64,000 nucleotides of DNA from Candidatus Daviesbacteria bacterium (GTDB lineage: Bacteria > Patescibacteriota > Microgenomatia > Daviesbacterales > UBA10151). Below are positions 1,508 to 43,924 of the stretch, in pieces. Numbering within the stretch: the first letter of the stretch is position 1; each line of letters begins with the position of its first letter. Below the pieces are notes generated by a model, which worked only from the letters and a program-made list of their open reading frames with translations, ran no database searches and had not been told where the DNA came from. The position numbers and the translations under genes were made by a program. The stretch lies in contig JACPKP010000009.1 in assembly GCA_016186955.1 (NCBI GenBank), positions 225,595 to 289,594 on the forward strand, written 5' to 3'.

Positions 1508-1511
1508 ACAC

Positions 1512-17811: not shown

Positions 17812-18870
17812 ATGACAATTTGCTTTTTTGGTTCGTATGAACGTAATTATTCAAAAAATGTTATTCTTCTGAAAGGCTTAAAAAAGAAAAAAATAAAAGT
17901 TGTCCATTGCCATCATCCAAATTATTTTACTCTTTCCCATTATCCTTCGCTTTTTTGGCAATTTCTTAATAAAGCAAGAGACGCAGACATTATTTTTGTA
18001 GCTTTTTTTGGCCACTATGATGTATGGTTTGCATGGATTTTGGGGAAAATATTTAAGAAAAAGGTTATTTTTGATCCTCTCGTATCAATTTACAATACTA
18101 GGGTAGAAGACCGTCAATATTTTAAAAAAAACAGCTTACGTGCAAAATTCTACATTCTTTTTGACCGGCTAAATGTTCACCTTGCGGAGCTAGTCTTACT
18201 GGATACCTACGAACACTTCAAGTATTTTCAGAAGATGTTTGGTTTAAGTGAAAGAAAAACCGCCATTGTACGTGTTGGGGCTGATGAAGAGATGCTTGTA
18301 CCGGTTAAAAAACATGCCAACCAACCGACGAGAGCATTATTTTACGGTTCCTACCAGCCAAGCCAGGGTGCTCTAAGAATTATTCAAAGCGCAAATTTGT
18401 TAAAAAAAGAGGATATAGCATGGATTTTTATTGGTAATGGTCAACAAAGAGCCTTGGTTGAAAACTATGCTAAAATAAAACACTTAAAAAAGACTACTTT
18501 TTTAGAGACAATGCCTTTTCAAGAACTTGTTAAATATATTATTAATGCAGATATAATATTTGGAGTGTTTGGGAATACTATTAAGTCTAAAATGGTAATT
18601 CATAACAAGATTTATCAGGGGACTGCTTTAGGCAAGGTTGTAATTACCCAGGATACAAAAGCTGTAAGAGAAATTTTTACTGACAAAAAAAATATTATTT
18701 TAACACAACCTAATAAAAAGAGTATCAGTGAAGGGATAATAAAGTTATTAAATAATAAAAAAGAGATTCAAAGGATAGGAAGAGGGGCAAGACAACTTTT
18801 TTTAAAACAACTTACCAGTAAACAGATAACAGATGAGTTAGTGGCTAAATTTAAAAAGCTAATGTTATAA
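17812..18870 (+). CDS. Putative GT-B fold glycosyltransferase-like protein (family unclear)
   Basis: The C-terminal half resembles GT-B C-domains (ALFYGSYQPSQGALRII...ADIIFGVFGN...GTALGKVVITQDTKAVREIF). There is no clean EX7E motif. Confidence 0.35.
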   Translation: MTICFFGSYERNYSKNVILLKGLKKKKIKVVHCHHPNYFTLSHYPSLFWQFLNKARDADIIFVAFFGHYDVWFAWILGKIFKKKVIFDPLVSIYNTRVEDRQYFKKNSLRAKFYILFDRLNVHLAELVLLDTYEHFKYFQKMFGLSERKTAIVRVGADEEMLVPVKKHANQPTRALFYGSYQPSQGALRIIQSANLLKKEDIAWIFIGNGQQRALVENYAKIKHLKKTTFLETMPFQELVKYIINADIIFGVFGNTIKSKMVIHNKIYQGTALGKVVITQDTKAVREIFTDKKNIILTQPNKKSISEGIIKLLNNKKEIQRIGRGARQLFLKQLTSKQITDELVAKFKKLML

Positions 18871-18877
18871 TCCGTAA

Positions 18878-19666
18878 GTGCAAGACTTTGTTAAAATTAT
18901 TAAAATTTGGCAATACAGACAACTGCTTTATTTTTTGACAATAAAAGAGATTAAAGTTCGTTATAAACAAGCTTTTTTTGGTATAGCTTGGGCAATTTTA
19001 ACTCCCTTATCACAAGCTTTAGTTTTTGCTTTCATTTTTGGAATCCTGCTGAAAACACAAATAAATAACATACCGTATCTGCTGTTAGTTTTTTCCGGAT
19101 TTACTTTCTGGAATTTTTTTGCTTTATCTATATCAAGCGCAACATCTGCTTTGACTGGAAATACTAACTTAGTCACGAAATCTACATTTCCTAAAGAGAT
19201 ATTAGTGCTGGCGTCAGTATTTGGGCGTCTCCCCGATTTATTAGCATCTTTAACAATGCTATTGATAATGCTTGCGTTTTATCAAATTAATTTTTCAATG
19301 CAACTTCTTTGGATTATCCCTATGTTTGCAATAGAGGTAATACTTGCTTTGGGGATAGGACTATTTTTTGCTGCAGCAAATGTTTATTTTAGGGATATTA
19401 CAGCCCTAGTCCCACTACTGTTGATGCTTTGGCTTTATTTAACACCTGTTGTATATTCGTTAAGCTTGATACCAAAAGCATATCAGTTTTTTATTTCATT
19501 AAATCCGATGACAGGTATTTTGGAAGGAGTGCGAGGCTCCCTATTTTTACAAAAATCTCCAGATATTAGCGCACTCATTTTACTTATGTGTATTTCACTA
19601 ACAATTTTTATAATAAATTTTATTTTATTCAAAAAACTAGAAAAAGGTTTTGCGGATATTATTTAA
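18878..19666 (+). CDS. wzm: ABC-2 type polysaccharide export permease (Wzm/TagG/KpsM-like)
   Basis: About 262 aa with 6 TM helices and the N-terminal IKEIKVRYKQAFFGIAWAILTPL block typical of ABC-2 permeases. It is immediately followed by an ATPase. Confidence 0.75.
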   Translation: MQDFVKIIKIWQYRQLLYFLTIKEIKVRYKQAFFGIAWAILTPLSQALVFAFIFGILLKTQINNIPYLLLVFSGFTFWNFFALSISSATSALTGNTNLVTKSTFPKEILVLASVFGRLPDLLASLTMLLIMLAFYQINFSMQLLWIIPMFAIEVILALGIGLFFAAANVYFRDITALVPLLLMLWLYLTPVVYSLSLIPKAYQFFISLNPMTGILEGVRGSLFLQKSPDISALILLMCISLTIFIINFILFKKLEKGFADII

Positions 19667-19669
19667 ATT

Positions 19670-20389
19670 ATGGAAGATATCATTGTTTTGAATAATGTTT
19701 GGAAAAAATATAATATAGGCAGTTCTAAAAAGTTGACAGAGACAATCTCCTCCTTTTTTTCATCAACAAAAGAAAAGAATTTTTGGGCTCTAAAAAATAT
19801 AAGCTTAGAAATTAAAAAGGGTGAGGTGATAGGTATAATCGGGCCAAACGGGTCAGGAAAATCAACACTATTGAAGATCTTATCGGGTATATCTTTTCCA
19901 TCAAAAGGATATTTATCTATTGACGGTAAGGTAGCATCTCTTTTAGAATTAGGGACAGGTTTTCATCCTGAGTTGACAGGTAGAGAAAATGTCTATCTTT
20001 ATGGTGCTATCTTGGGTATTGACCATAAACTTATAAAACATCAGTTTGACCAAATAATAAAATTCTCTGGCGTGGGAAAATTTATAAATACACCACTTAA
20101 GCATTATTCTTCAGGGATGTATATTAGACTGGCATTTTCAGTAGTAACACATTTAGACTTTGATATTTTACTAATAGATGAGGTACTGGCAATAGGTGAT
20201 GCCCAATTTCAAAAAAAATCCTTTGCTAAAATTCAAGAGATAAACAAACAAAACAAAACAATCATTGTTGTAAGCCATGATTTACAAAATATTACTAAGT
20301 TATGCGACAAAGTAATATTACTTAAAAACGGTAGAATCGAAAAAGTAGGAACAGCTCTTGATACTGTAAATTATTATCAAAAGCTATGA
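19670..20389 (+). CDS. wzt: ABC transporter ATP-binding protein (Wzt/TagH/KpsT-like, no C-terminal carbohydrate-binding domain)
   Basis: Walker A GIIGPNGSGKSTLL, signature YSSGMYIRLAF, Walker B ILLIDEVLAIGD. At 239 aa it is the nucleotide-binding domain only. Confidence 0.8.
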   Translation: MEDIIVLNNVWKKYNIGSSKKLTETISSFFSSTKEKNFWALKNISLEIKKGEVIGIIGPNGSGKSTLLKILSGISFPSKGYLSIDGKVASLLELGTGFHPELTGRENVYLYGAILGIDHKLIKHQFDQIIKFSGVGKFINTPLKHYSSGMYIRLAFSVVTHLDFDILLIDEVLAIGDAQFQKKSFAKIQEINKQNKTIIVVSHDLQNITKLCDKVILLKNGRIEKVGTALDTVNYYQKL

Positions 20390-21354
20390 AAAAATTTACC
20401 TTACCCAAAAAGCCATTGCTATCAATAGTAACTCCTTCATTTAACAGCGGTAAGTATCTTGAAGAGTGCATTAAAAGTATTCTGTCACAAGATTATCCTA
20501 GGGTGGAGCACATTATCCAGGATGGTGCTTCAACAGATGGTATCACAAAAAAAGTACTTAGAAAGTTTAAAACTTCTAAATACAAACATAGGATTCATAT
20601 ATTTTCTGAATCAGATAATGGACAGTCTGATGGATTAAACAAAGCGATCCAAAAAGCTAAAGGGGATATTCTTTTAGTTCTGAATGCTGATGATTGTTTG
20701 CTTCCACATGCTGCTTCCTGGGCAATAGAAAACTTTAGGAAATATCCAAATATAGCTGTGGTCTATGGAGATGTTTACACGATTGACGAGAGAAGTGCAA
20801 TAATAGACATTTTCAAAGCCCATGAATTTTCTTTTGAAAAACTTTTGGCTGTTGAGCTAGTTCCACCGGCACAAGCAGCATTTATCAGACGACAAGCTTT
20901 AGAAAAAGTGGGTTTTAATGCAGATGTAACTTTAGACACTTGTCCTGATTTTGAAATGTGGGTCAGAATTGCTCAAAAATTTCCCATGAAACACGTTGTT
21001 GGAATTGTTACCAAGTATCGCCACCACGACAAACCGCAACATGATAGTGGACAGAGGAGGACTACACAGAGGTTTGTAAAAGCAAAAAGAGAAGTTATGG
21101 ATAGATTATTTAATGATCCCAAAACCCCACACTATATTAAGAGATTGCGACGCAGAGCCTATGCCAGTCTCTATTTATGGGCTTCGTATACAGCTTATGA
21201 CTTAGGCCAAACTAAACAAGCAGTTCTTTATTTAGTAAAAAGTTTTATACTAATGCCCACACTGCACAAACTTTGGAAAATATTTAAAGAGTTAAGAGGG
21301 TTTTTAAGATATAGGTTAACCCTTTTAATAAAGTCAATTAAACATGCGCTTTAA
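20386..21354 (+). CDS. GT2 family glycosyltransferase
   Basis: LSIVTPSFNSGKYLEECIKSILSQDYPRVEHIIQDGASTDGI...LNADD. Confidence 0.7.
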   Translation: MKKFTLPKKPLLSIVTPSFNSGKYLEECIKSILSQDYPRVEHIIQDGASTDGITKKVLRKFKTSKYKHRIHIFSESDNGQSDGLNKAIQKAKGDILLVLNADDCLLPHAASWAIENFRKYPNIAVVYGDVYTIDERSAIIDIFKAHEFSFEKLLAVELVPPAQAAFIRRQALEKVGFNADVTLDTCPDFEMWVRIAQKFPMKHVVGIVTKYRHHDKPQHDSGQRRTTQRFVKAKREVMDRLFNDPKTPHYIKRLRRRAYASLYLWASYTAYDLGQTKQAVLYLVKSFILMPTLHKLWKIFKELRGFLRYRLTLLIKSIKHAL

Positions 21355-22177
21355 TCAAGTTTCGATTCAAAAAGTACAACAATTTTGGGACAAAAGGCCT
21401 TGTAATATTAGGCATTCTACTGCCCCTATCGGGACCAGGAAATATTTTAATGAAGTAGAGGAGCGTAAATATTTTGTGGAACCGCATATCCCCTCTTTTG
21501 CAGAATTTAAAAGATGGAAGGACAAAAAAGTCTTAGAAATAGGTTGTGGTATTGGTACAGACACTATAAATTTTGCCAGAGCTGGGGTAAAAGTAACTGC
21601 TGTAGAAATTTCCAGAAAATCATTAATTATTGCTAAAAAGCGTGCTCAAGTTTTTAAGCTAGGAAAAAAGATCAAATTTTACCTAGCTAATGCTGAGGAG
21701 TTATCAAAGACAGTGCCCACTCAATCATATGATTTAATTTATTCTTTTGGTACGATTCACCATACCCCAAATCCGACTAAAGCGATCAGTGAGATTAAAA
21801 AATATATGAACAAAAACTCTATATTAAAGTTGATGGTCTACCATCGTTATTCATGGAAAGTATTGTGGATACTTTTAAAATATGGACGAGGGAAGTTTTG
21901 GCAACTTGATCAGTTGGTTGCTGATAACTCTGAAGCGGCTACAGGCTCCCCAGTTTCCTATATCTATTCAAAATATCAGGCAAGGAAGCTATTGAGCGGG
22001 TTTAAAATTTTAGAGACAAAAGTTGACCATATTTTTCCATACAGAGTTCCAGAATATATTAAATATGAATATAAAAAGGTATGGTACTTTAGATGCTTGC
22101 CCAAATCTTTGTTTAGATGGTTAGAAGCTCATTTTGGCTGGCATTTATTAATTACAGCCAAACTATCAAAAATCTAA
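21344..22177 (+). CDS. Class I SAM-dependent methyltransferase
   Basis: VLEIGCGIGTDTINFARAGVKVTAVEIS (motif I, then an acidic residue at the end of beta-2). Confidence 0.7.
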   Translation: MRFNQVSIQKVQQFWDKRPCNIRHSTAPIGTRKYFNEVEERKYFVEPHIPSFAEFKRWKDKKVLEIGCGIGTDTINFARAGVKVTAVEISRKSLIIAKKRAQVFKLGKKIKFYLANAEELSKTVPTQSYDLIYSFGTIHHTPNPTKAISEIKKYMNKNSILKLMVYHRYSWKVLWILLKYGRGKFWQLDQLVADNSEAATGSPVSYIYSKYQARKLLSGFKILETKVDHIFPYRVPEYIKYEYKKVWYFRCLPKSLFRWLEAHFGWHLLITAKLSKI

Positions 22178-22190
22178 TACGAGAAAATCT

Positions 22191-23015
22191 TTGGTTTCAA
22201 TATTGACGATTGTAAAAAACGGTAGAATCTATATAAGGCCCTACCTGAGAGCCCTGCAAAACCAAACTTATAAAAAAATTGAGGTTGTTATCCAAGATGG
22301 TCAATCAAATGATGGGACTCAAGAATTTATACAAAAATTTAAAAAATCAACTAAAGTAAAAATCCTTCTAGAGTCTAGCCAAGATAAAAATGGAGCAGAG
22401 GCTATTTCTAAAGCTATAAAAAGATGCTCAGGGCAAATTGTATGTATGATTAATGCTGATGATATTTTAAATCAACATGCTTGCCAAATAGCTATTGATT
22501 ATTTTACGAAACAACCAAAAGCTGGCGCACTATATGGAGCCAACAAACTCATTACAAAAGAAGGCAAGTATATCAATACCTTTCGACCCATGCCTTTTGA
22601 TCTCATAAAACTATTAAGATGCGAACTGGTGCCTACTGCCAACGGATCTTTTTATAACTTAAAGGTCTGTAAAAATGATTTTAAATTCACTAGTCAGTTT
22701 AAAACTTGTGGCGATTTAGATTTATGGTTAAAGCTGAGCAAATTTCCAATCCTTTGTACCCAAAAAGTTTTAGCCTCCACTAGGGTTGACAAACAAAGCT
22801 CTACACGACAAGCAGCAAACTATGAACAATTTTGTACAGATAAAATCGGCATTTTAACTAAATTTATAAATAAATATGAAAAGAATATTATTACCGAACA
22901 GCTGCTAAAAACGTCTATTGCTGGTGTTTATGCTTGGGCAGCAGAATCGATACTGAACATAGAAGGGAAGACAAAAAGATTCCGTTATTATATAAATTTA
23001 GCTCAAAAATTATAA
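22191..23015 (+). CDS. GT2-like glycosyltransferase (TTG start, and the N-terminus may be mis-called)
   Basis: VSILTIVKNGRIY...ALQNQTYKKIEVVIQDGQSNDGT...INADD is paralogous to the GT2s at 20386 and 28297. Confidence 0.5.
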   Translation: MVSILTIVKNGRIYIRPYLRALQNQTYKKIEVVIQDGQSNDGTQEFIQKFKKSTKVKILLESSQDKNGAEAISKAIKRCSGQIVCMINADDILNQHACQIAIDYFTKQPKAGALYGANKLITKEGKYINTFRPMPFDLIKLLRCELVPTANGSFYNLKVCKNDFKFTSQFKTCGDLDLWLKLSKFPILCTQKVLASTRVDKQSSTRQAANYEQFCTDKIGILTKFINKYEKNIITEQLLKTSIAGVYAWAAESILNIEGKTKRFRYYINLAQKL

Positions 23016-23081
23016 TTCTATATACTTTGATATACTTGCAATAGGTTGATAAAAATAATTCATCTGATATATTGACACAAA

Positions 23082-25337
23082 GTGACAATTTCTGTTGTTG
23101 GTCTTGGTAAAGTTGGATCTTCAATGCTGGCTGCTTTTGCATCAAGGGGTTTTAAAGGAGTAGGATTGGATGTTAATAATGATTTAGTAAGGAAAATAAA
23201 TGATAAAGAAGCGCCTTTTAATGAACCCAATCTTGCTGAATTTTTAAAAAAGCACAAAAAAGATATTTCTGCAACCTCAAGCTACCAACAAGCCATACAG
23301 CAATCAGAAATTTCTTTTGTAATAGTGCCTACTCCAAGCGATAAAAACGGAGGTTTTTCTTCTCAATTTGTTGAACAAGCTGCACAAGAAATTGGCAAGG
23401 TATTCAATAACAAGTTTAATTACCACCTAGTTGTTATAGTTTCAACACTTTTACCAAAAATAGTTGAGACAAAAATCTTGCCTATTCTTGAAAAAGAATC
23501 AGGTAAAAAATGTGGCCAGGATTTTGGGCTGTGCTATAGCCCCCTCTTTATAGCCTTAGGTAATGTAATTGATAATATTTTAAACCCTGATTTTGTACTG
23601 GTTGGCGAATATGACAAAAAATCCGGTAATTTACTAGAAGATTTTTATAAAAAAGTTGTCGTTAATAAAGCACCAATAGTTAGAATGAATATTATTAACG
23701 CAGAACTGACTAAAATTGCTGTTAACTCCTATATCACAATGAAAATTACTTTTGCTAATATGTTAGGAGAAATTTGCGAAAATCTGCCTGGAGCAGATAT
23801 AGATAATATCACAGAAGCAATAGGGCAAGACTTAAGAATAGGCAAAAAATACCTTAAGGCTGGGTTAGGATTTGGCGGTCCTTGCTTTCCAAGAGATAAC
23901 ATAGCGCTATCATCTTTTTCAAAAACCATTCAAGTAGCACCCATCTTATTTAGTGCAACTGATTCTGTAAATAGAACTCAAACAAACCGTATTGTTAAAA
24001 GAATACTTTCCTCAGGAAATATTGCAAAAGTTGCATTACTTGGACTGGCTTATAAAACCGGTACTTCAGTCACAGAGCAGTCACAGGGTATGGAAATTGC
24101 CCAGAAGTTTTTAAAACTGAACAAAGAAGTTAAGGTTTACGATCCCTTCATTCACGATGCTGATTATTTGAAGGGACTAGTTGTTACAAAATCAGTTGAT
24201 GAATGTATCAAAGGGGTTGATTGTATTATTGTAGCCTTACCTTATCCAGAGTTTAATAAAATTTCTGAAAAATTAGGCAATAATAATCCGATAATTTATG
24301 ATTGCTGGAGGATATTAGACCAGAAACTTTTCAGAGGAGAAGCTACTTATTTCGCCACAGGTCTAGCAGATAGTATTTTACTAAACTTAAATACGCTAAA
24401 AAAACAAAAAATTGTTGTCTGCGGTGCAGGAGGATTTATTGGAGGCCATATGGTGGCTGATTTAGTGAATAAAGGTTATCAAAATATTACTGCTGTTGAT
24501 ATAAAACCCATTGATTGCTGGAATCAGTATTTTGCTAATATTGAAAACCTACAGCTAGATTTAAGAGACAAACGGGCATGCGAGGCTGCATTAAAAAAGG
24601 CTTTTATGATCTATAATTTTGCAGCTGATATGGGAGGCATGGCTTTTATAGAATCAAACAAGGCAAGATGTATGATAAATGTGTTGATAAACACACATCT
24701 TTTGCAAGCAGCAGTAAAAAATAAAGTAAAATATAACACTCAAAAACAACACCTGCCTAACCTTCCTCCGCTAAAGGAAACCGATGCATATCCTGCCTTT
24801 CCAGAGGATGGTTATGGATGGGAAAAATTATTTTCAGAAAGATTATGTAAAAATTTTTTTGATGATTTTGGCTTGGAAACAAGAGTTGCAAGATATCATA
24901 ATATTTATGGTCCTTTTGGGACGCATGATGGCCGTCGAGCTAAAGCACCGGCAGCAATTTGCCGTAAAGTTGCAGAGGCTAAAATAACAGGAAACCATAA
25001 AGTTGAAATTTGGGGAGACGGCAAGCAAACCAGAAGTTTTACATTTATTGATGATTGTATAAAAGGCACCAATAAAATAATGTTTAGTGATATTCAAGAA
25101 CCCGTAAATTTGGGTAGTAGTGAAAAAGTTACAATTAATCAACTAGTTGATATTACAGAAAAAATTGCCGGAATTAAATTAAAAAGAAATTATAATTTAG
25201 GTGCTCCAAAGGGAGTCTATGGGAGAAACAGTGATAATACCTTGATTAAAAAACATTTAGGGTGGGAACCATCTACAAAGCTTGTAGAAGGGATTGAAAA
25301 AACATATAAATGGATTTATGAGCAAATACGCACTTGA
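23082..25337 (+). CDS. Bifunctional fusion of a nucleotide-sugar 6-dehydrogenase (UDP-glucose/GDP-mannose dehydrogenase family) to a GDP-mannose 3,5-epimerase (GME)-like SDR domain
   Basis: N-terminal 430 aa: MTISVVGLGKVGSSMLAAFA (NAD Rossmann), the GFGGPCFPRD catalytic-Cys block, and a C-terminal UDP/GDP-binding domain (GLAYKTGTSV...VKVYDPF). C-terminal 320 aa: VVCGAGGFIGGHMV, then FAADMGGMAFIESNKARCMINVLINTHLLQAA, ARYHNIYGPFGTHDGRRAKAPAAICRK, WGDGKQTRSFTFIDDCIKG and GRNSDNTLIKKHLGWEP. These are near block-for-block matches to plant/bacterial GME motifs. It has a GTG start. Confidence 0.7.
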   Translation: MTISVVGLGKVGSSMLAAFASRGFKGVGLDVNNDLVRKINDKEAPFNEPNLAEFLKKHKKDISATSSYQQAIQQSEISFVIVPTPSDKNGGFSSQFVEQAAQEIGKVFNNKFNYHLVVIVSTLLPKIVETKILPILEKESGKKCGQDFGLCYSPLFIALGNVIDNILNPDFVLVGEYDKKSGNLLEDFYKKVVVNKAPIVRMNIINAELTKIAVNSYITMKITFANMLGEICENLPGADIDNITEAIGQDLRIGKKYLKAGLGFGGPCFPRDNIALSSFSKTIQVAPILFSATDSVNRTQTNRIVKRILSSGNIAKVALLGLAYKTGTSVTEQSQGMEIAQKFLKLNKEVKVYDPFIHDADYLKGLVVTKSVDECIKGVDCIIVALPYPEFNKISEKLGNNNPIIYDCWRILDQKLFRGEATYFATGLADSILLNLNTLKKQKIVVCGAGGFIGGHMVADLVNKGYQNITAVDIKPIDCWNQYFANIENLQLDLRDKRACEAALKKAFMIYNFAADMGGMAFIESNKARCMINVLINTHLLQAAVKNKVKYNTQKQHLPNLPPLKETDAYPAFPEDGYGWEKLFSERLCKNFFDDFGLETRVARYHNIYGPFGTHDGRRAKAPAAICRKVAEAKITGNHKVEIWGDGKQTRSFTFIDDCIKGTNKIMFSDIQEPVNLGSSEKVTINQLVDITEKIAGIKLKRNYNLGAPKGVYGRNSDNTLIKKHLGWEPSTKLVEGIEKTYKWIYEQIRT

Positions 25338-26278
25338 TTTTACCCTCTAGGCTTTTATATACTTTGCTACATAATATGCTTACTATATTTGCTACTCCAA
25401 AAGCTTTTCAGGGTCAGTTTTCTGTTATTCAGGAGAATGCCGTAGCAAGCTGGACTAAACTTAAACCCGGATGCCAGATTATTTTATTAGGCAATGATTA
25501 TGGAACAAAAAAAATTGCCAAAAAATATGGAATTTTACATATACCAAATATTGCCGTAAATAAGTATGGAACACCTCTCCTACCAGATCTTTTTAAAAAA
25601 GCCTACAAAAGATCTAAATTCCCAATTCTTGCCTATGTTAATTGTGACATTATCTTAACAAAAGATTTTATAGAAGGTATTAAAAAAATTAATCTGCCTA
25701 AGTTTTTTTTAACAGGAGCTCGTAAAGAGTTAAAAATTACACATAGTTTAGATTTCGAAAATAATTGGCAAAATAATCTTAAAGCTAAAGTGCTAAAAGA
25801 GGGAGAACTTGTTTTAAAAGATGGTGCTACTGATTATTTTGTGTTCAGGCCAAAAATTGATTTTAAAATGCCAAACCTAATTTTAGGCAGAACATTTTGG
25901 GATGCTTGGTTAATTTTTCAAGCAAAGTATTTAAAAATTCCAATTATTGATGCAACTAATGTTATTTGGGCAATTCATCAAACTCATAATTATTCCCATG
26001 CAGGTGGGTGGAATAATGTTTGGCTTGGGCCAGAAAGTAAAATAAACCTGAAATTAATTGGCGATAGACGAAAAATTTTTAATACTAAAGATGCTGACTT
26101 TGTCCTTACTCAAGATGGTCTTAAAAAACCCAACCTTACAATTTCCAGAATAGTTAGAAAAATAGAAACAGCCCCAATCTTCACACCAGAGATAAGCCTG
26201 TTTTTATACCCGTTTAATTTTTTTATAAAGGTTTGCAAATTTACCAAAGACCAAGCAAGAATGAGATTTAAAAGATGA
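25334..26278 (+). CDS. Hypothetical protein (possible nucleotide-diphospho-sugar transferase fold)
   Basis: A 314-aa ORF translationally coupled on both sides within the glycan operon. I recognise no confident motif. Confidence 0.3.
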   Translation: MILPSRLLYTLLHNMLTIFATPKAFQGQFSVIQENAVASWTKLKPGCQIILLGNDYGTKKIAKKYGILHIPNIAVNKYGTPLLPDLFKKAYKRSKFPILAYVNCDIILTKDFIEGIKKINLPKFFLTGARKELKITHSLDFENNWQNNLKAKVLKEGELVLKDGATDYFVFRPKIDFKMPNLILGRTFWDAWLIFQAKYLKIPIIDATNVIWAIHQTHNYSHAGGWNNVWLGPESKINLKLIGDRRKIFNTKDADFVLTQDGLKKPNLTISRIVRKIETAPIFTPEISLFLYPFNFFIKVCKFTKDQARMRFKR

Positions 26279-28296: not shown

Positions 28297-29166
28297 TCAA
28301 CTAAACCCTCCATCCCAGACATATTTTTTTCTTGTTTCAGTAATCCTTTTTAATATTTTTAAAAATGTTAAAGGAAAGATAAAAAAGAATTTATACTTAG
28401 GATGTTGCCAAAGATACCGGTTGATACGGTAGCGCCAAAAAAAACTTTTTGGGGCATAATTTTTGACTAGATTAAACTTATCTTGATCCCACCCCTTTGC
28501 TTCTCTTGTACCGGTACTGTGGGGATATGTCATAGCATGGAATAGATTAATTCTGCAAAATTTAACAGTTGCTTTTGCCTGGATGCAATTAATTAAAAAT
28601 GAAGCATCCGCTAACCAGTCAAAAGCCGGGAATAATCCAATCTTTGATAATGCGTCTCTTCTGATGATATAACCCATGCCGCAGGCCCCATAATCAAAAA
28701 TGTCATAAATATTATGACCGTAATTTGAACCTGGTGGAACATAGACAATTTTTTTACTTTTGGCGCCTGCTATGGATACGGTACCACCACAAACCAGTAA
28801 ATCTATTTCAGGATTTTTTTCCATTACCAAGATAGCTTTCTCTAAAGCTTGAGGTAAAACAATATCATCATCGGCGAGGTGCTTAATATATCTCCCTTTT
28901 GCAAGAAGCAAACCTTTGTTAAATGCATGGGCAGATGTTAAATCTGGTTCCGATAGAAATATATCTATAATATCAGCATATTTTTTAACCACTTCGGGGG
29001 TATTATCTTCAGATGCCCCATCGATTATAATCAGTTCGTCTTGATTTTTGATTAGTGTTCTACACATTTTTAAAGTCTGTTCTAAAAATTCTGCCCTATT
29101 TTTTGTATTAAGGATGTAAGAAACTCTTTGAGTGGAGGATTTATCAAAGCTGGAATATTTTTTCAT
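28297..29166 (-). CDS. GT2 family glycosyltransferase
   Basis: VSYILNTKNRAEFLEQTLKMC...ELIIIDGASEDNT...LADDD. It is the last gene of the long minus-strand operon. Confidence 0.7.
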   Translation of the reverse strand: MKKYSSFDKSSTQRVSYILNTKNRAEFLEQTLKMCRTLIKNQDELIIIDGASEDNTPEVVKKYADIIDIFLSEPDLTSAHAFNKGLLLAKGRYIKHLADDDIVLPQALEKAILVMEKNPEIDLLVCGGTVSIAGAKSKKIVYVPPGSNYGHNIYDIFDYGACGMGYIIRRDALSKIGLFPAFDWLADASFLINCIQAKATVKFCRINLFHAMTYPHSTGTREAKGWDQDKFNLVKNYAPKSFFWRYRINRYLWQHPKYKFFFIFPLTFLKILKRITETRKKYVWDGGFS

Positions 29167-29873
29167 AAAATTTTTACCGCCCTAGCATATCTTTTGGGTG
29201 TACCTATGTCAATTACCTTACTTTTGACTACAAATCCGTAACAGTTTTGTCTAATAATATTTGAAAAAAAATCTTTTTCAAGTGAAAAAACATTTTTTGA
29301 TGGCATTTTCAGAAAAATATCCCTGTTCATAAAATAAGCTCCTGCATTTATGAAACCCCCTGAATCAATATGAGGTTTTTCATTGAAACTTTTTATCCTT
29401 TTAGAACGGGAAATTATAACATGACCTCCTTCGCTAAGTTTTTCTGAATGCGATAATGCGATAGAAAGTAGCGCTCTGCGAGTTAAATGAAATTCCAAAA
29501 AATTGTTCAAATCAATCCGGCAAATTGAATCCCCATTGAGTACCAAAAAGTTTTGGCTTTTCAGTAGAAACTCCGCTTTTTTTAAAGCACCGCCTGTTCC
29601 CAAAGGATAATCTTCTTCGGAGAACTCTACAGTTACGTATTTTGGTAAATTAAACGGATATTTTTTGATTTGATCTTTTAAATATCCTACTGAAAGAATG
29701 ATCCTTTGCAAACCCGCTTTGGTTAAGCCATTAATAATTAAATCCAGCATTGTACGGTTGCCGATTTCAAGCAGAGCTTTTGGTTTGTTGCCTGCAACTG
29801 ATTTTATTCTTGTACCCAAACCACCACATAAAATTACGGCATCAATAAATTTAAGCTCATTTTTGGGGTACAT
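29163..29873 (-). CDS. hddC: Sugar-1-phosphate nucleotidyltransferase, HddC-like (D-glycero-alpha-D-manno-heptose 1-phosphate guanylyltransferase)
   Basis: AVILCGGLGTRIKSVAGNKPKALLEIGNRTMLD (GxGxR NTP-transferase motif), short at 236 aa, and translationally coupled to the HddA-like kinase. Confidence 0.6.
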   Translation of the reverse strand: MYPKNELKFIDAVILCGGLGTRIKSVAGNKPKALLEIGNRTMLDLIINGLTKAGLQRIILSVGYLKDQIKKYPFNLPKYVTVEFSEEDYPLGTGGALKKAEFLLKSQNFLVLNGDSICRIDLNNFLEFHLTRRALLSIALSHSEKLSEGGHVIISRSKRIKSFNEKPHIDSGGFINAGAYFMNRDIFLKMPSKNVFSLEKDFFSNIIRQNCYGFVVKSKVIDIGTPKRYARAVKIL

Positions 29874-30862
29874 TAATCAGAAATATTATATATGATGCTT
29901 GAACCTGTTTTTTCAAATGCAAAAGGGACATGCAATAACTTATTAAATTTTCTTAAAAACTTTTTTTGCATTGAGGGTTCCACAAAGAAAACGATAAACC
30001 CACCACTGCCTGCTCCGAGTAGTTTACCCCCCAACGCACCAGCGCTGATGCCCTCACTGTAAATCTCATCAATTAACTGGTTACTTATATTAGAAGCCAG
30101 GCTTTTTTTAATTATCCAGTTTTCGTGTAGTAGTTTGCCTAAGGTTTGTGCAGAAAAATTAGTGCCGGTTAACTTTTCGTAAGCTTTGGCTGTAATTTTT
30201 GAAAGAGCATGAAGTTCATTAAATTTGTTTGGCGTATTTTTAATAAGTTGTGCTGAAATGTCCGAAGCTCTTCTCTGGAATCCGGTAAAGAACAAAAGTA
30301 TATATTTCTCAAGAGCTTGTATTCGCGACCTGGATATTGCTAAGGGTTCAACGATAATCTTTCCATTTTTTTGAAATAAAATTCTATTTAAGCCTCCGTG
30401 TGCAGCAATGGTTTGGTCCTGTGAACCTACATTTTCCTTAATTTTATTCTGTTCAATTTCTATGGCGTCTCTTGCCAGTTGTTGTTTTGAAACAGATTTT
30501 CCGAGTAAAGCGTATAAGGAATTTAAAAAACCGACTGTAAAGGATGAGCTGGATCCTAAACCTGACATTGCCGGCAAGTCACTGGTATGAACCATCTCAA
30601 TCCCGGAGTTAATATTTAAGAAGTTAAGCGTTTCTTTTACTGCTGGATGTCTGATCTGGTTTATGGACAAAGTTGTTTCCCTATGGGTATATCGGATCCT
30701 GTATTTATATGGGAAAAAAGGAGGGAGATAACGGGTAACAATATAACAATATTTATTGATTGAAGTGCTGATGACAGATCCACCAAATTTACGATACCAT
30801 ATTGGATAATCAGTTCCTCCCCCAAACAGGGAAATCCGGAATGGTGTTCTGGATATTACCAT
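29873..30862 (-). CDS. hddA: GHMP-family sugar kinase, HddA-like (D-glycero-alpha-D-manno-heptose 7-phosphate kinase)
   Basis: MVISRTPFRISLFGGGTDYPIWYRKFGGSVISTSINKYCYIV...DLPAMSGLGSSSSFTVGFLNSLYALLGK...GSQDQTIAAHGGLN lines up with HddA from Aneurinibacillus/Campylobacter (MIITKTPLRVSFVGGGTD...PSGTGLGSSSAF...GKQDQY). Confidence 0.75.
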   Translation of the reverse strand: MVISRTPFRISLFGGGTDYPIWYRKFGGSVISTSINKYCYIVTRYLPPFFPYKYRIRYTHRETTLSINQIRHPAVKETLNFLNINSGIEMVHTSDLPAMSGLGSSSSFTVGFLNSLYALLGKSVSKQQLARDAIEIEQNKIKENVGSQDQTIAAHGGLNRILFQKNGKIIVEPLAISRSRIQALEKYILLFFTGFQRRASDISAQLIKNTPNKFNELHALSKITAKAYEKLTGTNFSAQTLGKLLHENWIIKKSLASNISNQLIDEIYSEGISAGALGGKLLGAGSGGFIVFFVEPSMQKKFLRKFNKLLHVPFAFEKTGSSIIYNISD

Positions 30863-30871
30863 AAAGATTGT

Positions 30872-31855
30872 TTAAACAAATCTTTTTGCATAAAAGACAT
30901 TATATTTTTTGTTTATAACACTACGTTTTTTCAAAAACCAGTCAATCGTTTCTTTGATCCCTTCCTGTAAACTTACTTTAGGATTATAACCAATAGATTG
31001 TGCCCTTTGGATATCCATAATCCTCATCCTATCTCCGCTTTTTTTTGATTTATCCCAAATTACTTTAGGAGGTTTTTCAATACTTTCGCAAATTGTGCTC
31101 ACCAGCTCTTTTATTGTGACGCCGGTCCCGCTTCCTAAGTTTAAAGCGCTCCCATCAGCATGTTTCATTGCTAAAATCATCCCTTCAGCAACATCCCTTG
31201 AGAAAACAAAATCCCGTATTTCGGATCCGTCCCCCCAAACAGTAAGAGGATTTTCGCCGTCTAGGACCCTTCTGATTAGGGAGGGTACGACCATAGCGTT
31301 TTTAGGATCAAAATTATCATAAGGCCCGTAAGTGTTAGCCGGCCTGACTATTGTTGTTTTGTTCCAGCCAAACTCTATTTTATATGCTTCAACCTGCAAT
31401 TCCCCAACTCTTTTTGCCCATCCGCCAAACCAATCCTTATGGGAGGGGAATGTATGCCATACATCGTCCTCATGAAAAATTTTAGCAGGGCCATAGACTC
31501 CGACAGAGCTTGTGTAAAGATACCTTTTTACTCCACTGATCCGTGCTGCCTCCATCATATTAGTGTTGAACAAAACTCCTGGTACGAAGATACTTGCAAC
31601 TTTTTTTGTTGCGATTCCGGCAGATACTTTAATTCCTGCCAAATGAAAAACATAATCTATGCCGCGGCACGCTTTAATGCAATTATCATATGAAGTAAGA
31701 TTTAGTTTCTTAAACTCTACGTCTTTTGGCAAATCCTTATTCCGTTCCATTGAGACAACCCGGACTTTTGCACCCATTTTGTGAAGAATTTCTACAAGCT
31801 GCATTCCGATCATCCCAGTCCCGCCAGTAATAAGAATTTTTTTATTTTTATACAT
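30872..31855 (-). CDS. NAD-dependent epimerase/dehydratase (extended SDR; candidate GDP-heptose/hexose modifying enzyme)
   Basis: KKILITGGTGMIGMQLVEIL and a YGPAK-type YxxxK block (LYTSSVGVYGPAK). Confidence 0.65.
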   Translation of the reverse strand: MYKNKKILITGGTGMIGMQLVEILHKMGAKVRVVSMERNKDLPKDVEFKKLNLTSYDNCIKACRGIDYVFHLAGIKVSAGIATKKVASIFVPGVLFNTNMMEAARISGVKRYLYTSSVGVYGPAKIFHEDDVWHTFPSHKDWFGGWAKRVGELQVEAYKIEFGWNKTTIVRPANTYGPYDNFDPKNAMVVPSLIRRVLDGENPLTVWGDGSEIRDFVFSRDVAEGMILAMKHADGSALNLGSGTGVTIKELVSTICESIEKPPKVIWDKSKKSGDRMRIMDIQRAQSIGYNPKVSLQEGIKETIDWFLKKRSVINKKYNVFYAKRFV

Positions 31856-31863
31856 GTCTTTTC

Positions 31864-32535
31864 CTAGATTGAATTATTAAATAATTTGTCAAATACTGCA
31901 ACCCCGCGTAGTTGATTAATGCTTGTAATAATTTCATCTGCTTCTGTCAAAAACTCCTGACCCATAGTAGAAGAAACTGCAATACAGTATGCTCCAGCTT
32001 TTTTTGCAGACTTTATTCCCAAGGGTGCGTTTTCTATCACTAAACATTTTTTGATATCTACCGACAATAACTTTGCAGCTTTAAGATAAGGATCCGGGAA
32101 TGGTTTTCCTCTTTTGACTTGGTCACCGGTGATGATAACTTTAAATTTCTTTAAAAAATTTTCAGGTAGTGTTGAGTGTAACCTGTTGTAAAGACCGGCA
32201 GTAACTATGGCAAATGGAATATTTTTTGCGTGTAATAAATTTATTATACTTTTAACGCCCCGATAGAGTTGGAATTTATTGTTCTTCAAATATAGATCCT
32301 CCTTATTTTTAATAATATCTTCTACCAGCGACTTGTCTAACCCGGCCTTTTGGCAATATTTTTTTGCTAATTTTTCTAATTTCATCCCTTCGTAAGGAAA
32401 GTACTCTTGTGCGGAGATAGAAATATTGTATTTTTTCAGCGATTTCAACCAGGCTTTATAATTATCTTCCATTGTTTGGGCCAAAACACCGTCAAAATCA
32501 AACAAAACAGCCTGATATTTTTTTGATGGAATCAT
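31864..32535 (-). CDS. HAD-superfamily hydrolase, subfamily IA (beta-phosphoglucomutase/phosphatase-like)
   Basis: Motif I LFDFDGVLAQT, with later KPFPDPY-type and E-N-A motif III regions. Confidence 0.65.
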   Translation of the reverse strand: MIPSKKYQAVLFDFDGVLAQTMEDNYKAWLKSLKKYNISISAQEYFPYEGMKLEKLAKKYCQKAGLDKSLVEDIIKNKEDLYLKNNKFQLYRGVKSIINLLHAKNIPFAIVTAGLYNRLHSTLPENFLKKFKVIITGDQVKRGKPFPDPYLKAAKLLSVDIKKCLVIENAPLGIKSAKKAGAYCIAVSSTMGQEFLTEADEIITSINQLRGVAVFDKLFNNSI

Positions 32536-33045
32536 TTATTTGAAGAATTCAAGCGTATCACGCATCCACTGCGGAAGATATTTGTAATGAGGGCTTGTCA
32601 CAAGCTTACCGTCAATTACTGATGGAGCATCAATGTAATTAGCGCCCGCATTTTCTATGTCATCCCGAATACTGTAATATCCGGAGACTTTTTTCCCCTT
32701 GACAATTTTAGCCGATATTAACATTTGTGACCCGTGACAAATAGCGGCAATAACCTTTCCTGCTTTTGCAAATTTTGATATAAAATCAATCACAGTTTTT
32801 TCCTGGCGCAGATATTCCATACATTTTGCTCCTCCAGGAATGATTAGTAAATCATAGTCAGAAACCCTCAGATTGGTTGTATCTTTAGTAGGGACAACTT
32901 TAGTTCCGTTTACGCCGAGAACTATCTCTTTATTTTTAATAGCAACATCAACCTTGAACCCTGCTTCCTGAAGTCTGTAATAGGGGTATATATATTCATG
33001 GTCTTGCACATATTTGCCTGTTATAATTAAAGCCCTTTTTTTCAT
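32536..33045 (-). CDS. DJ-1/PfpI family protein (class I glutamine amidotransferase-like fold)
   Basis: A 169-aa protein with the nucleophile-elbow Cys in AAICHGSQML and the overall PfpI length and pattern. Confidence 0.6.
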   Translation of the reverse strand: MKKRALIITGKYVQDHEYIYPYYRLQEAGFKVDVAIKNKEIVLGVNGTKVVPTKDTTNLRVSDYDLLIIPGGAKCMEYLRQEKTVIDFISKFAKAGKVIAAICHGSQMLISAKIVKGKKVSGYYSIRDDIENAGANYIDAPSVIDGKLVTSPHYKYLPQWMRDTLEFFK

Positions 33046-37001: not shown

Positions 37002-37005
37002 TGGA

Positions 37006-39336: not shown

Positions 39337-39344
39337 AATTTATC

Positions 39345-39391
39345 TCGATAAAACCCCGACCGTTAAGTCGTAGGTAGATTCATTTTATCGA
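39345..39391 (-). promoter_or_regulatory. Nested inverted repeat (possible intra-operon RNA stem-loop / processing or attenuation site)
   Basis: A perfect 9-bp IR tcgataaaa ... ttttatcga (39345-39353 / 39383-39391) encloses an inner GC hairpin cgac-cgttaa-gtcg (39357-39370). It spans the MTase stop codon and the 43-bp gap before the Gln-kinase-like gene. Confidence 0.2.
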
Positions 39392-43861: not shown

Positions 43862-43924
43862 CCTTATTGCAGAGTATATAACAAAGAGCAGGCTAAGCCA
43901 AGGACTGATATAATAGTACCCAAG

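Follow-up and report, generated by a model that had tools for sequence, protein, structure and literature searches.

The open reading frame at positions 23082..25337 (+) of the window, the 64,000-nucleotide stretch of a Candidatus Daviesbacteria contig that was analysed, is a natural fusion, within one gene, of two sugar-nucleotide enzymes whose genes lie side by side in many bacteria: a nucleotide-sugar 6-dehydrogenase (DH) and a member of the GME (3,5-epimerase of GDP-mannose) family. The pair belongs to a conserved cassette, found in more than 10 phyla, of a DH, a GME or related Cys-bearing short-chain dehydrogenase/reductase (SDR), a methyltransferase, a GT2 glycosyltransferase and a GT-A glycosyltransferase. 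We tentatively propose that the cassette may well make a GDP-L-hexuronate, with GDP-mannose being epimerised, then oxidised at C6, transferred and methylated. The proposal builds on the observed domain architecture, family membership, cassette conservation and fusion network, from which we infer which substrates are used, in what order the steps run and what is made.

The fusion protein and its GME-family half

The fusion ORF encodes 751 amino acids from a GTG start to a TGA stop with no interruption, as the earlier note had described it, and its product is the same protein as GenBank entry MBI2596251.1, annotated as 'nucleotide sugar dehydrogenase' in a Candidatus Daviesbacteria bacterium MAG from an uncultured groundwater organism. 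Pfam identifies UDPG_MGDP_dh_N at residues 1-186 (5.8e-40), a central domain at 206-298, a C domain at 318-414 and an SDR 'Epimerase' domain at 444-669 (5e-32). The linker between the two halves, residues 415-443 (...ATYFATGLADSILLNLNTLKKQK; 24324..24410, +), is short and is kept in the nearest fusion homologues. An assembly chimera, which would have undone the reading in the earlier note, is ruled out because the DH-GME junction recurs in an independent Logan contig, in the GenBank protein and in over 20 further fusion proteins (36-61% identity), so that the identical junction is present in two assemblies as well as in homologues. An AF2 model of the fusion built from a shallow alignment of 10 sequences has a mean pLDDT of 69.7, with low confidence around the deletion described below (residues 550-583) but also in the DH dimerisation helices, and so lends slight support to structural damage there.

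The C-terminal half, residues 444-751 (24411..25334, +), is an extended SDR like the characterised GMEs, with which it shares the GxxGxxG motif (GAGGFIGG) and, in the case of the Arabidopsis enzyme, 46.5% identity. As judged from its sequence, this half is a true GME-family domain: it matches plant GME structures at 264 and 258 bits, whereas the next SDR scores 87 bits. GDP-hexose chemistry is therefore likely. Conserved residues include Y578, K582, N607, K621, R651 and R715, equivalent to Arabidopsis Y174, K178, Asn203, K217, the diphosphate-binding Arg243 and Arg306, respectively.

All five GME signature blocks quoted in the earlier note are present, but a further stretch is absent, a loss that the earlier note had overlooked. 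Relative to its homologues, the window copy has a codon-exact 30-bp gap between K550 and Y551 (between nt 24731 and 24732; junction 24729..24734, +). The missing bases, AGATTTTTCTTTGCATCATCAGCATGTATT, encode RFFFASSACI, corresponding to Arabidopsis R137-I146, and include both Ser143 and Cys145. As a result, only six of the eight GME fingerprint residues are found in the window copy, compared with eight of eight in the intact allele (P0001) and in the other fusions. The catalytic triad Ser143-Tyr174-Lys178 is incomplete, with Y578 and K582 present and Ser143 in the deleted block, and so is the acid/base pair Cys145/Lys217 with its Cys-acidifying Arg306, for which K621 and R715 are present and Cys145 lies in the deleted block. 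Unlike characterised GMEs, then, the window copy does not have the 10-residue strand with the catalytic Ser and Cys, and because of this loss its GME half is predicted to be catalytically dead. The window allele is predicted to need another source of GDP-L-hexose, or else to have the pathway switched off.

It is quite possible, if somewhat doubtful, that the gap is not biological, that is, that it arose in the deposited MAG through assembly or curation, or through the calling of a minor variant, and that the organism truly carries the intact gene of 761 aa. The Logan contig L001, assembled independently from SRR12113420 and 100% identical to the window over 7,297 shared bases, retains the 30 bp; every other homologue retains SS[AG]C[IV]Y; and elsewhere the GME half is free of decay, its other fingerprint residues being intact. 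However, the GenBank record, a 291-kb contig, has the same gap in its MAG protein, which also excludes artificial editing of the window. The gap keeps exactly to the reading frame and leaves the ORF open, and clean 30-bp deletions without repeats are rarely made by assemblers. No repeat or microhomology was found flanking the junction, and slippage or repeat-mediated deletion was rejected on the same grounds. An in-frame loss-of-function allele would also be plausible in a phase-variable surface-glycan locus.

No fusion to, or adjacency with, a DH has been reported for the characterised GMEs, whereas the window domain is fused to a DH and its relatives are fused or adjacent to one. The one characterised bacterial GME, MfGM35E from Methylacidiphilum, has a published neighbourhood without a DH, and we therefore rejected it as a member of the cassette.

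A distinct dehydrogenase clade

The N-terminal half, residues 1-414 (23082..24323, +), contains PF03721 (1-186), PF00984 (206-298) and PF03720 (318-414), all three above their gathering scores, and scores 328.9 bits against NCBIfam TIGR03026 (cutoff 189.8). By domain architecture and by this model it is a member of the NDP-sugar 6-dehydrogenase superfamily. The conserved residues are G7/G9/G12, T84, S121, T122, E208, K211, N215, N226, G265, G266, C268, D272, N297 and K325, and the codon of the catalytic nucleophile, Cys268 in GGPCFPRD, is at 23883..23885 (+). Of 18 family-invariant residues (Freas et al. 2016), 17 are present, and the absent one is the Pro-Glu glutamate (P154-L155). The description of this half as a complete Ugd/AlgD-family enzyme in the earlier note thus stands as regards the three domains and the catalytic Cys, but not as regards completeness or the Ugd and AlgD types.

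The substitution lies in a loop, P154-L155-F-I-A-L-G160 (23541..23561, +), that stands where the family has the motif P-E-F-L-R-E-G. The invariant Glu{258}, which in human UGDH is Glu161, the base for thioester hydrolysis, is L155 here, and Glu{262} is L159. In addition, Arg{493}, which is 99% conserved and forms a salt bridge to the NAD+ pyrophosphate, has E332 (24075..24077, +) in its place. The DH half belongs to a group of 112 sequences, which we call the FIALG clade, in which [NS]P[EL]FIALG replaces NPEFLREG, Glu is found at {493} in 105 members and every group-specific position has residues of the clade's own. Glu{258} is kept in 97 of the 112 and is Leu in 12. In the window's fusion subclade E155L, Y96F and G260A are all fixed (12/12), with no compensating acidic residue.

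Comparison with the AlgD and UDP-glucose dehydrogenase groups shows that the DH half is neither Ugd-type nor AlgD-type and that the FIALG clade is separate from both. The top solved-structure match is AlgD from P. aeruginosa (1MFZ/1MV8), with 205.6 bits over residues 1-358, that is, chiefly the N-terminal and central domains, versus 188.5 bits for an archaeal UDP-glucose dehydrogenase. AlgD and the DH half share the superfamily, the three-domain layout, Leu at {219}, and catalytic Cys268, Lys, Asn and Asp in nearly the same numbering. An AlgD-type assignment based on this match was nevertheless dropped once the residues specific to the group, and the C domain, had been checked. Among the AlgD-group residues taken from PMC4794789, namely His217{359}, Leu126{219}, Ala263{406}, Arg122{215} and Cys213{355}, only {219} is matched in the window, where the equivalents are I218, L124, G263, V120 and V214. 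The AlgD motif NPEFLRES is SPLFIALG in the DH half, Arg{493} is Glu, and the nucleotide-binding C domain gave no AlgD match, with no detectable specific similarity to the GDP-binding domain of AlgD.

The UDP-glucose dehydrogenases (archaeal AglM, Pyrobaculum 3VTF and human UGDH) resemble the DH half in superfamily, in a hydrophobic residue at {359}, in Gly at {406} and presumably in a covalent Cys mechanism, and at {359} (Ile/Val) and {406} the DH is closer to them than to AlgD. Of their residues Lys{215}, Pro{219}, Leu{359}, Glu{262} and Arg{493}, however, the DH half is similar only at {359} (Ile), the others being replaced, as is Asp{491}. The equivalog models for UDP-glucose dehydrogenases were all far below cutoff, including the best-scoring one, AglM (278.7 vs 670 bits for AglM, 189.5 vs 700 for TuaD and 87.7 vs 757 for Ugd). 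The DH half accordingly does not match the strict UDP-glucose dehydrogenases, a match that the earlier note had named as refuting its reading. The FIALG clade has no characterised enzyme, and its putative nucleotide and sugar specificity is drawn from association.

Cassette partners and the fusion network

The window cassette sits within an ABC-transporter-type surface-polysaccharide locus, and its context is that of an ABC-transporter-exported glycan: Wzm/Wzt-type genes (ABC2_membrane and ABC_tran; 18878..20389, +) lie directly upstream. They are followed by a GT2 glycosyltransferase (20386..21354, +), with orthologues in 16 of 80 reference-genome loci at up to 52% identity, and by a 277-aa SAM-dependent methyltransferase (21344..22177, +). 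Orthologues of the methyltransferase adjoin the DH/SDR pair in 41 of the 80 loci (median identity 58%) and are 60-72% identical in loci selected with the DH alone; in PDB and NCBIfam searches it gave only generic SAM-fold matches. Downstream of the fusion is GenBank HYW46_05975 (25334..26278, +; probable start M15, nt 25376), which has no Pfam or NCBIfam match and is predicted to adopt a GT-A glycosyltransferase fold (pLDDT 94). Its best structural match, a modest one (TM ~0.5, 12% identity), is a GDP-beta-L-fucose-dependent fucosyltransferase, and orthologues of this type are present in 23 of the 80 loci. Farther along the window, a HddC/ManC-like sugar-1-phosphate guanylyltransferase and a HddA/fucokinase-like GHMP sugar kinase (29163..30862, -) are a possible local source of GDP-sugar. 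GDP-heptose as the true substrate, an idea suggested by these genes, was set aside because HddA/HddC-like genes show no enrichment near the cassette in other loci.

The DH and GME genes are adjacent in approximately 55 of the 80 loci, with adjacency spanning Cyanobacteriota, Chlamydiota, Acidobacteriota, Planctomycetota, Verrucomicrobiota, Actinomycetota, Proteobacteria and Patescibacteria among more than 10 phyla. When stand-alone DHs were retrieved with the DH half alone, an epimerase-type SDR adjoined the gene in four of four cases; the class-2 SDR gave no match to a known specificity. At least four to five independent DH-GME fusions have arisen, in both orders. This recurrent adjacency and repeated independent fusion in both orders support functional coupling of the DH and the GME.

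A second set of fusions involves the DH but not the GME. The DH is fused to the 25334-type glycosyltransferase, in both orders (P0199 and P0214), to the 20386-type GT2 (P0202 and P0220) and to a WecG-type glycosyltransferase (P0196). A NadE-like ATP-dependent amidotransferase gene lies beside the DH in approximately 15 loci, and there is a DH-CN_hydrolase fusion.

Proposed pathway and alternatives

In the proposed pathway, (i) the GME would convert GDP-D-mannose to GDP-L-galactose and/or GDP-L-gulose. The equilibrium of plant GME is unfavourable. (ii) The DH would then oxidise C6 of the L-hexose with two NAD+, via a Cys268 thiohemiacetal and thioester, to GDP-L-galacturonic or GDP-L-guluronic acid, and in doing so would pull the GME equilibrium. 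(iii) The GT-A enzyme would pass the L-hexuronate to the growing glycan, and (iv) the methyltransferase would modify it, with the NadE-like amidotransferase acting instead or additionally in other lineages. The end product would probably serve the cell surface as a rare acidic L-sugar.

Because it is the DH and not the GME that is fused to glycosyltransferases, the DH is placed directly before the transfer step, and epimerisation followed by oxidation is therefore favored over the reverse order. This argument draws on a handful of architectures. The same order, which the earlier note had offered only as its alternative, is also consistent with the DH having no counterpart of the mannose-O2-binding His of AlgD and with the canonical GDP-mannose epimerase active-site residues of the GME half (Ser143 and Cys145 excepted in the window copy). 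The amidotransferase genes beside the DH and the DH-CN_hydrolase fusion argue for a carboxylate product, and a GDP-L-hexuronate as the end product is plausible. Searches of the literature for GDP-L-guluronic or GDP-L-galacturonic acid, a GDP-L-galactose 6-dehydrogenase, a DH-GME fusion or such a pathway returned nothing relevant, and in the glycan literature searched no non-amino L-galacturonic or L-guluronic residues derived from a nucleotide sugar are documented.

The order preferred in the earlier note, in which a GDP-mannose 6-dehydrogenase forms GDP-mannuronic acid and the GME half then inverts C5 (or both C3 and C5) of the still nucleotide-linked uronate to give GDP-L-guluronic or GDP-L-galacturonic acid, now appears unlikely. 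A 4-keto-uronate intermediate would be a beta-keto acid and prone to decarboxylation, as follows from general SDR chemistry. In addition, the AlgD His217 that binds the mannose 2''-OH is Ile/Val in the DH, four of five AlgD-group residues and the C domain do not match, the GME fingerprint shows no change that would fit a C6 carboxylate, and the glycosyltransferases are fused to the DH and not to the GME. Against this stand the AlgD structural match, the Leu/Met at {219} as in GDP-mannose dehydrogenases, and the tight DH-GME coupling, which fits either order equally well.

A precedent for oxidation before epimerisation is the Bordetella WbmF/WbmG/WbmH route to UDP-2,3-diacetamido-2,3-dideoxy-L-galacturonic acid, for which it was proposed in 2007 that SDRs epimerise a UDP-uronate at C3 and C5. 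The suggestion in the earlier note that uronate epimerisation at the nucleotide level is undescribed in bacteria was thus too broad, although it holds for GDP-uronates. Like our pathway, the proposed Wbm route goes from D-manno to L-galacto at the nucleotide-sugar level, supplies an L-hexuronic acid for an O-antigen and uses SDRs with a GME-like catalytic Cys. It differs in using UDP-linked diamino sugars, in oxidising before epimerising, in employing three SDRs and in having no DH fusion, and WbmF is distant from the window's GME half (34 bits).

Canonical four-electron oxidation of C6 to a free acid by the DH half is not assured, because neither Arg{493} nor Glu{262} is kept in the clade and the thioester-hydrolysis Glu is gone from the window's subclade as well. 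We therefore considered non-canonical chemistry in which no free uronic acid is released, whether by stopping at the aldehyde, by resolving the thioester with something other than water or by acting on another class of substrate, and judge it improbable. In human UGDH, the E161Q variant has a kcat of 0.0014 instead of 0.85 per second, a loss of ~600-fold, and the thioester accumulates. The near-universal Glu at {493}, the fixed substitutions of the subclade, including the loss of Tyr96, and the association of the DH with amidotransferase and methyltransferase genes are consistent with such chemistry. However, the Cys, Lys, Asn, Asp, Thr and other invariant residues are retained, Glu{258} is present in most clade members, and water or another residue invisible in sequence could aid hydrolysis. 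Its more specific form is more improbable again, namely that the subclade DH passes the C6 of a GDP-L-hexose, once oxidised, to a non-water acceptor, or stops at the aldehyde, with, for example, an ester, amide or lactone as product.

Finally, we think it quite improbable that the two activities are independent and merely co-expressed for one glycan, the DH making UDP-glucuronic acid or another ordinary uronate and the GME making GDP-L-galactose with no shared intermediate: the top equivalog is AglM, {359} and {406} are UDP-glucose dehydrogenase-like, relatives are automatically annotated as UDP-glucose 6-dehydrogenase and unrelated sugar genes are often co-located in glycan loci, but the equivalog cutoffs are missed widely, the clade departs from UDP-glucose dehydrogenases at {215}, {219}, {260-262}, {410}, {414}, {491} and {493}, the SDR partner found in all four DH-only-selected cases, and across more than 10 phyla, is a Cys-bearing epimerase type, and repeated independent fusion in both orders would be unusual for enzymes without a common metabolite.

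If the cassette works as proposed, with epimerisation preceding oxidation, it would represent a widespread, unstudied route to GDP-L-hexuronic acids, nucleotide sugars hitherto undescribed, and would bring with it a new sugar 6-dehydrogenase clade that departs from several of the family's 'invariant' rules as well as a new family of GT-A glycosyltransferases. Should the non-hydrolytic reading of the DH be true instead, the reaction outcome would be new to the UGDH family. The deletion allele is a caution in its own right, in that the loss of a catalytic block is overlooked when only the conserved blocks are read. An irreversible step that pulls the unfavourable GME equilibrium would be of practical interest for L-sugar production. 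The route would predict methylated or amidated L-galacturonate or L-guluronate at the surfaces of CPR bacteria, environmental chlamydiae, filamentous cyanobacteria, acidobacteria and others, and cultured carriers of the cassette include Leptolyngbya sp. Cla-17 and Pantanalinema rosaneae CENA516.

Architecture of the fusion and loss of its Ser/Cys block

The ORF at 23082–25337 (plus strand) is a single uninterrupted 751-codon frame. It opens at a GTG, which must be the correct start because the Rossmann motif VVGLGKVGSS comes from it, and closes with TGA. UDP-glucose/GDP-mannose dehydrogenase family domains occupy residues 1–186, 206–298 and 318–414, an NAD-dependent epimerase/dehydratase (extended SDR) domain occupies residues 444–669 (Pfam), and the protein passes the NCBIfam model TIGR03026 (nucleotide sugar dehydrogenase) with 328.9 bits against a cutoff of 189.8. 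These domains confirm an earlier note's reading of the ORF as a nucleotide-sugar 6-dehydrogenase (DH) fused to a domain like that of GDP-mannose 3,5-epimerase (hereafter GME), and all five GME signature blocks named there are found in it. The GME half shares 46.5% identity with Arabidopsis GME and scores 264 and 258 bits against plant GME; among other SDRs the next family scores only 87 bits.

An assembly chimera, the artefact considered in that note, is ruled out by three lines of evidence: (i) contig L001 of an independent Logan assembly (SRR12113420) spans 18801–26097 of the window at 100% identity with one 30-bp difference; (ii) GenBank MBI2596251.1 ("nucleotide sugar dehydrogenase", Candidatus Daviesbacteria bacterium, 291-kb contig) matches the window ORF exactly; and (iii) a search for such fusions elsewhere found more than 20 further proteins of matching two-domain layout at 36–61% identity. 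The window thus derives from a CPR/Patescibacteria MAG.

The sole difference from the Logan contig is 30 bp, AGATTTTTCTTTGCATCATCAGCATGTATT, which the window lacks at the junction of nt 24731 and 24732. Falling exactly on codon boundaries, the gap takes out RFFFASSACI, which would otherwise separate K550 from Y551 and aligns with R137–I146 of Arabidopsis GME. The lost block is the β-strand at whose end lie Ser143, a member of the S-Y-K triad, and Cys145; the latter serves as catalytic acid in the Cys145/Lys217 pair that carries out both epimerisations (PMC8787198). The remaining GME fingerprint is kept (Y578, K582, N607, K621, R651 and R715, equivalent to Arabidopsis Y174, K178, N203, K217, R243 and R306), and SS[AG]C[IV]Y is retained in all other homologues examined. 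The sequence as given should encode an inactive epimerase half. The earlier GME-like assignment holds for family and signature blocks, but the missing Ser143/Cys145 block had gone unnoticed.

No repeat or microhomology was found flanking the 24731|24732 junction. MBI2596251.1 has the identical gap, which therefore belongs to the deposited MAG and not to the window alone; it may be a real population variant or else an assembly or curation artefact. Modelled with AF2, residues 550–583 of the fusion have low confidence and no predicted strand; this counts for little, as the model was built from a shallow alignment and is as poor in other regions. The GME homologue P0262 carries one intein-like insertion exactly at Cys145 (SSAC...HNCIY), in the same block as is deleted in the window.

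A separate dehydrogenase clade

Among solved structures, the top match of the DH half is AlgD (205.6 bits over residues 1–358), with an archaeal UDP-glucose dehydrogenase a close second (188.5 bits); AlgD was undetected when the C-terminal nucleotide-binding domain was searched alone. The top NCBIfam equivalog, AglM, scores 279 bits, well short of its 670-bit cutoff. Residues were scored by the family analysis of Freas et al. 2016 (PMC4794789), whose alignment positions are given in braces. Seventeen of the 18 residues invariant among 229 family members (PMC4794789) are kept, including C268, K211, N215 and D272. P154-L155 stands in place of the invariant Pro-Glu pair, and the family motif NPEFLREG becomes SPLFIALG.

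In the 112 nearest homologues whose DH domain could be aligned, the motif is [NS]P[EL]FIALG. These proteins have a residue of their own at each group-specific position: Thr/Val at {215} (Arg in GDP-mannose DHs, Lys in UDP-glucose DHs), Leu/Met at {219} (Leu and Pro, respectively), Val/Ile at {359}, which contacts the sugar 2''-OH (His and Leu), Pro at {410}, Arg at {414} and Val at {491}. At {493}, 105 of the 112 have Glu, where elsewhere a 99%-conserved Arg bridges the NAD+ pyrophosphate. Judged by these residues and by a C-terminal domain that does not match AlgD, the DH half is neither Ugd nor AlgD, contrary to the Ugd/AlgD-family placement proposed earlier, and falls in a separate group, here named the FIALG clade. 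The clade has no characterised member, and its NCBI names are generic only.

The window's subclade (P0001–P0011, fusions throughout) has fixed E155L, Y96F and G260A and shows no acidic residue that would compensate. In human UGDH the residue equivalent to position 155, Glu161, acts as Brønsted base when the thioester is hydrolysed; in the E161Q mutant kcat drops from 0.85 to 0.0014 per second and the thioester builds up (PMC3265891). Intein-like insertions of ~370–390 aa interrupt the FIALG DHs P0185, P0256, P0275 and P0308 precisely at their catalytic Cys (GGPC...HNCFPRD) and, by inspection, probably P0239 and P0296 as well.

A conserved cassette and a fusion network

One genome per GTDB species, scanned with an alignment of the fusions, gave 80 loci, ranked on matches to both halves. 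In ~55 of these 80, a set biased towards pairs, a FIALG-type DH gene neighbours a separate gene for a true GME, in either order. The paired loci occur in Cyanobacteriota (including cultured Leptolyngbya sp. Cla-17, Pantanalinema rosaneae CENA516 and UHCC 1019), Chlamydiota (Simkania, Parachlamydiales, Rhabdochlamydiaceae), Acidobacteriota, Planctomycetota, Verrucomicrobiota, Actinomycetota, Alphaproteobacteria and Patescibacteria. Because of the bias, we also inspected the loci of four stand-alone DHs that only the DH half had retrieved; each directly adjoins an epimerase-type SDR, one a true GME and three a related "class-2" SDR. The class-2 SDR takes GME's place in the cassette (L016, L018–L020, L030, L050, L067, L082, L083 and L085), and its family is also fused to DH (P0016, P0017, P0020 and P0023). 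It retains equivalents of Cys145 and Arg306, has Lys217 replaced by Ala and Asn203 by Thr, and bears the motifs AADHGGRGY, SSGCVYPN and NRVADN; no clear characterised relative was found.

Three neighbours of the fusion recur. The SAM methyltransferase (21344–22177) has orthologues in 41 of the 80 loci (median 58% identity), reaches 60–72% identity in the DH-only-selected loci and is more conserved than the DH itself; methyltransferases are the most frequent Pfam family among 127 neighbouring proteins. ORF 25334 (25334–26278) has orthologues in 23 loci (48–62% identity in DH-only-selected loci), and the GT2 (20386–21354) in 16 (up to 52%). ORF 25334 has no sequence match in Pfam, NCBIfam or PDB. 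Its model, built from 41 homologues (pLDDT 94.3, pTM 0.91), has a GT-A glycosyltransferase (GT) fold; the best structural match is WrtF, a GDP-β-L-fucose-dependent fucosyltransferase (E = 1.5e-7, TM ~0.5), followed by other GT-A enzymes. At their C terminus, its homologues P0171, P0174 and P0177 carry, of the DH family, only the NDP-sugar-binding domain (PF03720), the catalytic domains being absent.

A ~550-aa CN_hydrolase plus NAD_synthase protein, a glutamine-dependent NAD-synthetase-like amidotransferase, adjoins the DH in ~15 loci (L008, L031, L034, L039, L058, L069, L072, L074, L075, L078–L080, L082, L083 and L085), directly upstream where checked (e.g., L008, L082, L083, L085); it is absent from the window. 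Together with a DH–CN_hydrolase fusion (P0266), this suggests that a uronamide is made from the DH product.

The fusion groups comprise DH–GME in the window's subclade, in P0012 and in rotifer-labelled proteins, GME–DH (P0013 and P0014) and DH–class-2 SDR. The DH domain of each group is nearer to unfused DHs than to the other groups, and at least four to five independent fusion events are therefore indicated. Searching 1.84 billion cluster representatives exhaustively with phmmer, with subsequent domain checks, added 25334-type GT–DH (P0199), DH–25334-type GT (P0214), 20386-type GT2–DH (P0202), DH–GT2 (P0220) and DH–WecG/TagA-type GT (P0196), besides the DH–CN_hydrolase fusion P0266. GME in this set is fused to DH and two unassigned domains, and never to 25334-type, GT2 or WecG/TagA-type GTs; thus, the DH is the hub of the network. 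In the DH–GME fusions P0015, P0019, P0021, P0022 and P0181 the GME half appears eukaryote-like. P0019, P0021 and P0022 are labelled as bdelloid or monogonont rotifer (Didymodactylos carnosus, Rotaria sp.), two on contigs of 0.5–1.26 Mb; P0015 and P0181 have no organism label. This suggests either that rotifers gained the gene horizontally or that a fusion arose independently in eukaryotes.

Glycan context and a candidate route to GDP-L-hexuronate

The minus-strand region 29163–35606 resembles a block for activating and modifying GDP-sugars, with an HddC/ManC-like guanylyltransferase, an HddA/fucokinase-like GHMP sugar kinase, a GDP-fucose-synthase-like SDR, a HAD/β-PGM-like phosphatase, a PfpI/DJ-1 protein and a pair of TPP-dependent E1 α/β-like genes; two additional GDP-fucose-synthase-like SDRs lie at 41984–43930. 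A complete O-methyl-phosphoramidate-type set, as in Campylobacter jejuni capsule loci and unexpected in a CPR bacterium, occupies 35658–40644 (minus strand): a γ-glutamyl-CDP-amidate hydrolase (129.8 bits) fused to an NTP-transferase (35658–37001), a PRK05849 protein (37006–39336, 986 bits) presumably resembling the L-glutamine kinase Cj1418, a SAM methyltransferase (39380–40138) and an APS-kinase-like protein (40135–40644). Two PMT/PMT_2-type and one PIG-V-like membrane glycosyltransferases with dolichyl-phosphate-mannose-type folds (14–3140 and 5136–6284, plus strand) hint at lipid-phosphate-sugar-dependent glycosylation on the membrane's outer face in this CPR organism.

Our tentatively favoured model, given a little less than an even chance as a whole, is that GME would act first, DH second and a GT third. 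The substrate would be a GDP-hexose, since characterised GMEs proper are all GDP-specific, the locus has a sugar-1-phosphate guanylyltransferase and a GHMP sugar kinase, and the nearest fold of the ORF 25334 GT uses a GDP-L-sugar. Several observations argue for the order: (i) DH is the partner fused to transferases; (ii) it lacks AlgD's mannose-binding His; (iii) its sugar loop is unlike those of D-gluco- and D-manno-specific enzymes; and (iv) the GME active site is canonical. The GME equilibrium strongly favours GDP-mannose, and irreversible oxidation right after GME would pull flux, which would make sense of the two genes lying side by side or fused. GDP-L-galacturonic or GDP-L-guluronic acid would result; the amidotransferase and CN_hydrolase associations support a carboxylate. 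The GT-A enzyme would place the sugar in a Wzm/Wzt-exported glycan, where the L-hexuronate may be methylated and, in other lineages, amidated.

The earlier note also arrived at a GDP-L-hexuronate from coupled DH and GME, which we retain, but preferred oxidation to GDP-mannuronate followed by nucleotide-level epimerisation. That order shares the GDP-linked substrate; with the AlgD His absent, we rank it below epimerisation first and consider it unlikely. Non-canonical DH chemistry, with Leu at position 155 and the other invariant residues kept, is rather more doubtful. That a UDP-glucose DH and GME are simply co-expressed is slightly less probable again, the evidence for DH/GME coupling being strong.

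Both domain families are textbook. Characterised GMEs (plants, Methylacidiphilum) stand alone, whereas those here are fused or adjacent to a DH; the Methylacidiphilum gene has no DH neighbour. Full-text literature searches turned up nothing published about GDP-L-guluronic or GDP-L-galacturonic acid, a GDP-L-hexose 6-dehydrogenase or a DH–GME fusion. The L-hexuronic acids known in bacterial glycans are 2-amino derivatives or L-iduronic acid, according to one review. Nucleotide-level uronate epimerisation, held in the earlier note to be undescribed in bacteria, has already been proposed for Bordetella WbmF/G/H (UDP-D-ManNAc3NAcA to UDP-L-GalNAc3NAcA; PMC2279256), the nearest conceptual precedent, although on UDP-amino sugars.

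The window's own copy is probably crippled: with this allele, the pathway would be off or would need GDP-L-hexose from another source, and salvage supply by the neighbouring kinase/guanylyltransferase pair is pure speculation. We only infer the chemistry of the pathway; what is new is an uncharacterised DH clade, its cassette and a GT family, together with a predicted new nucleotide sugar.
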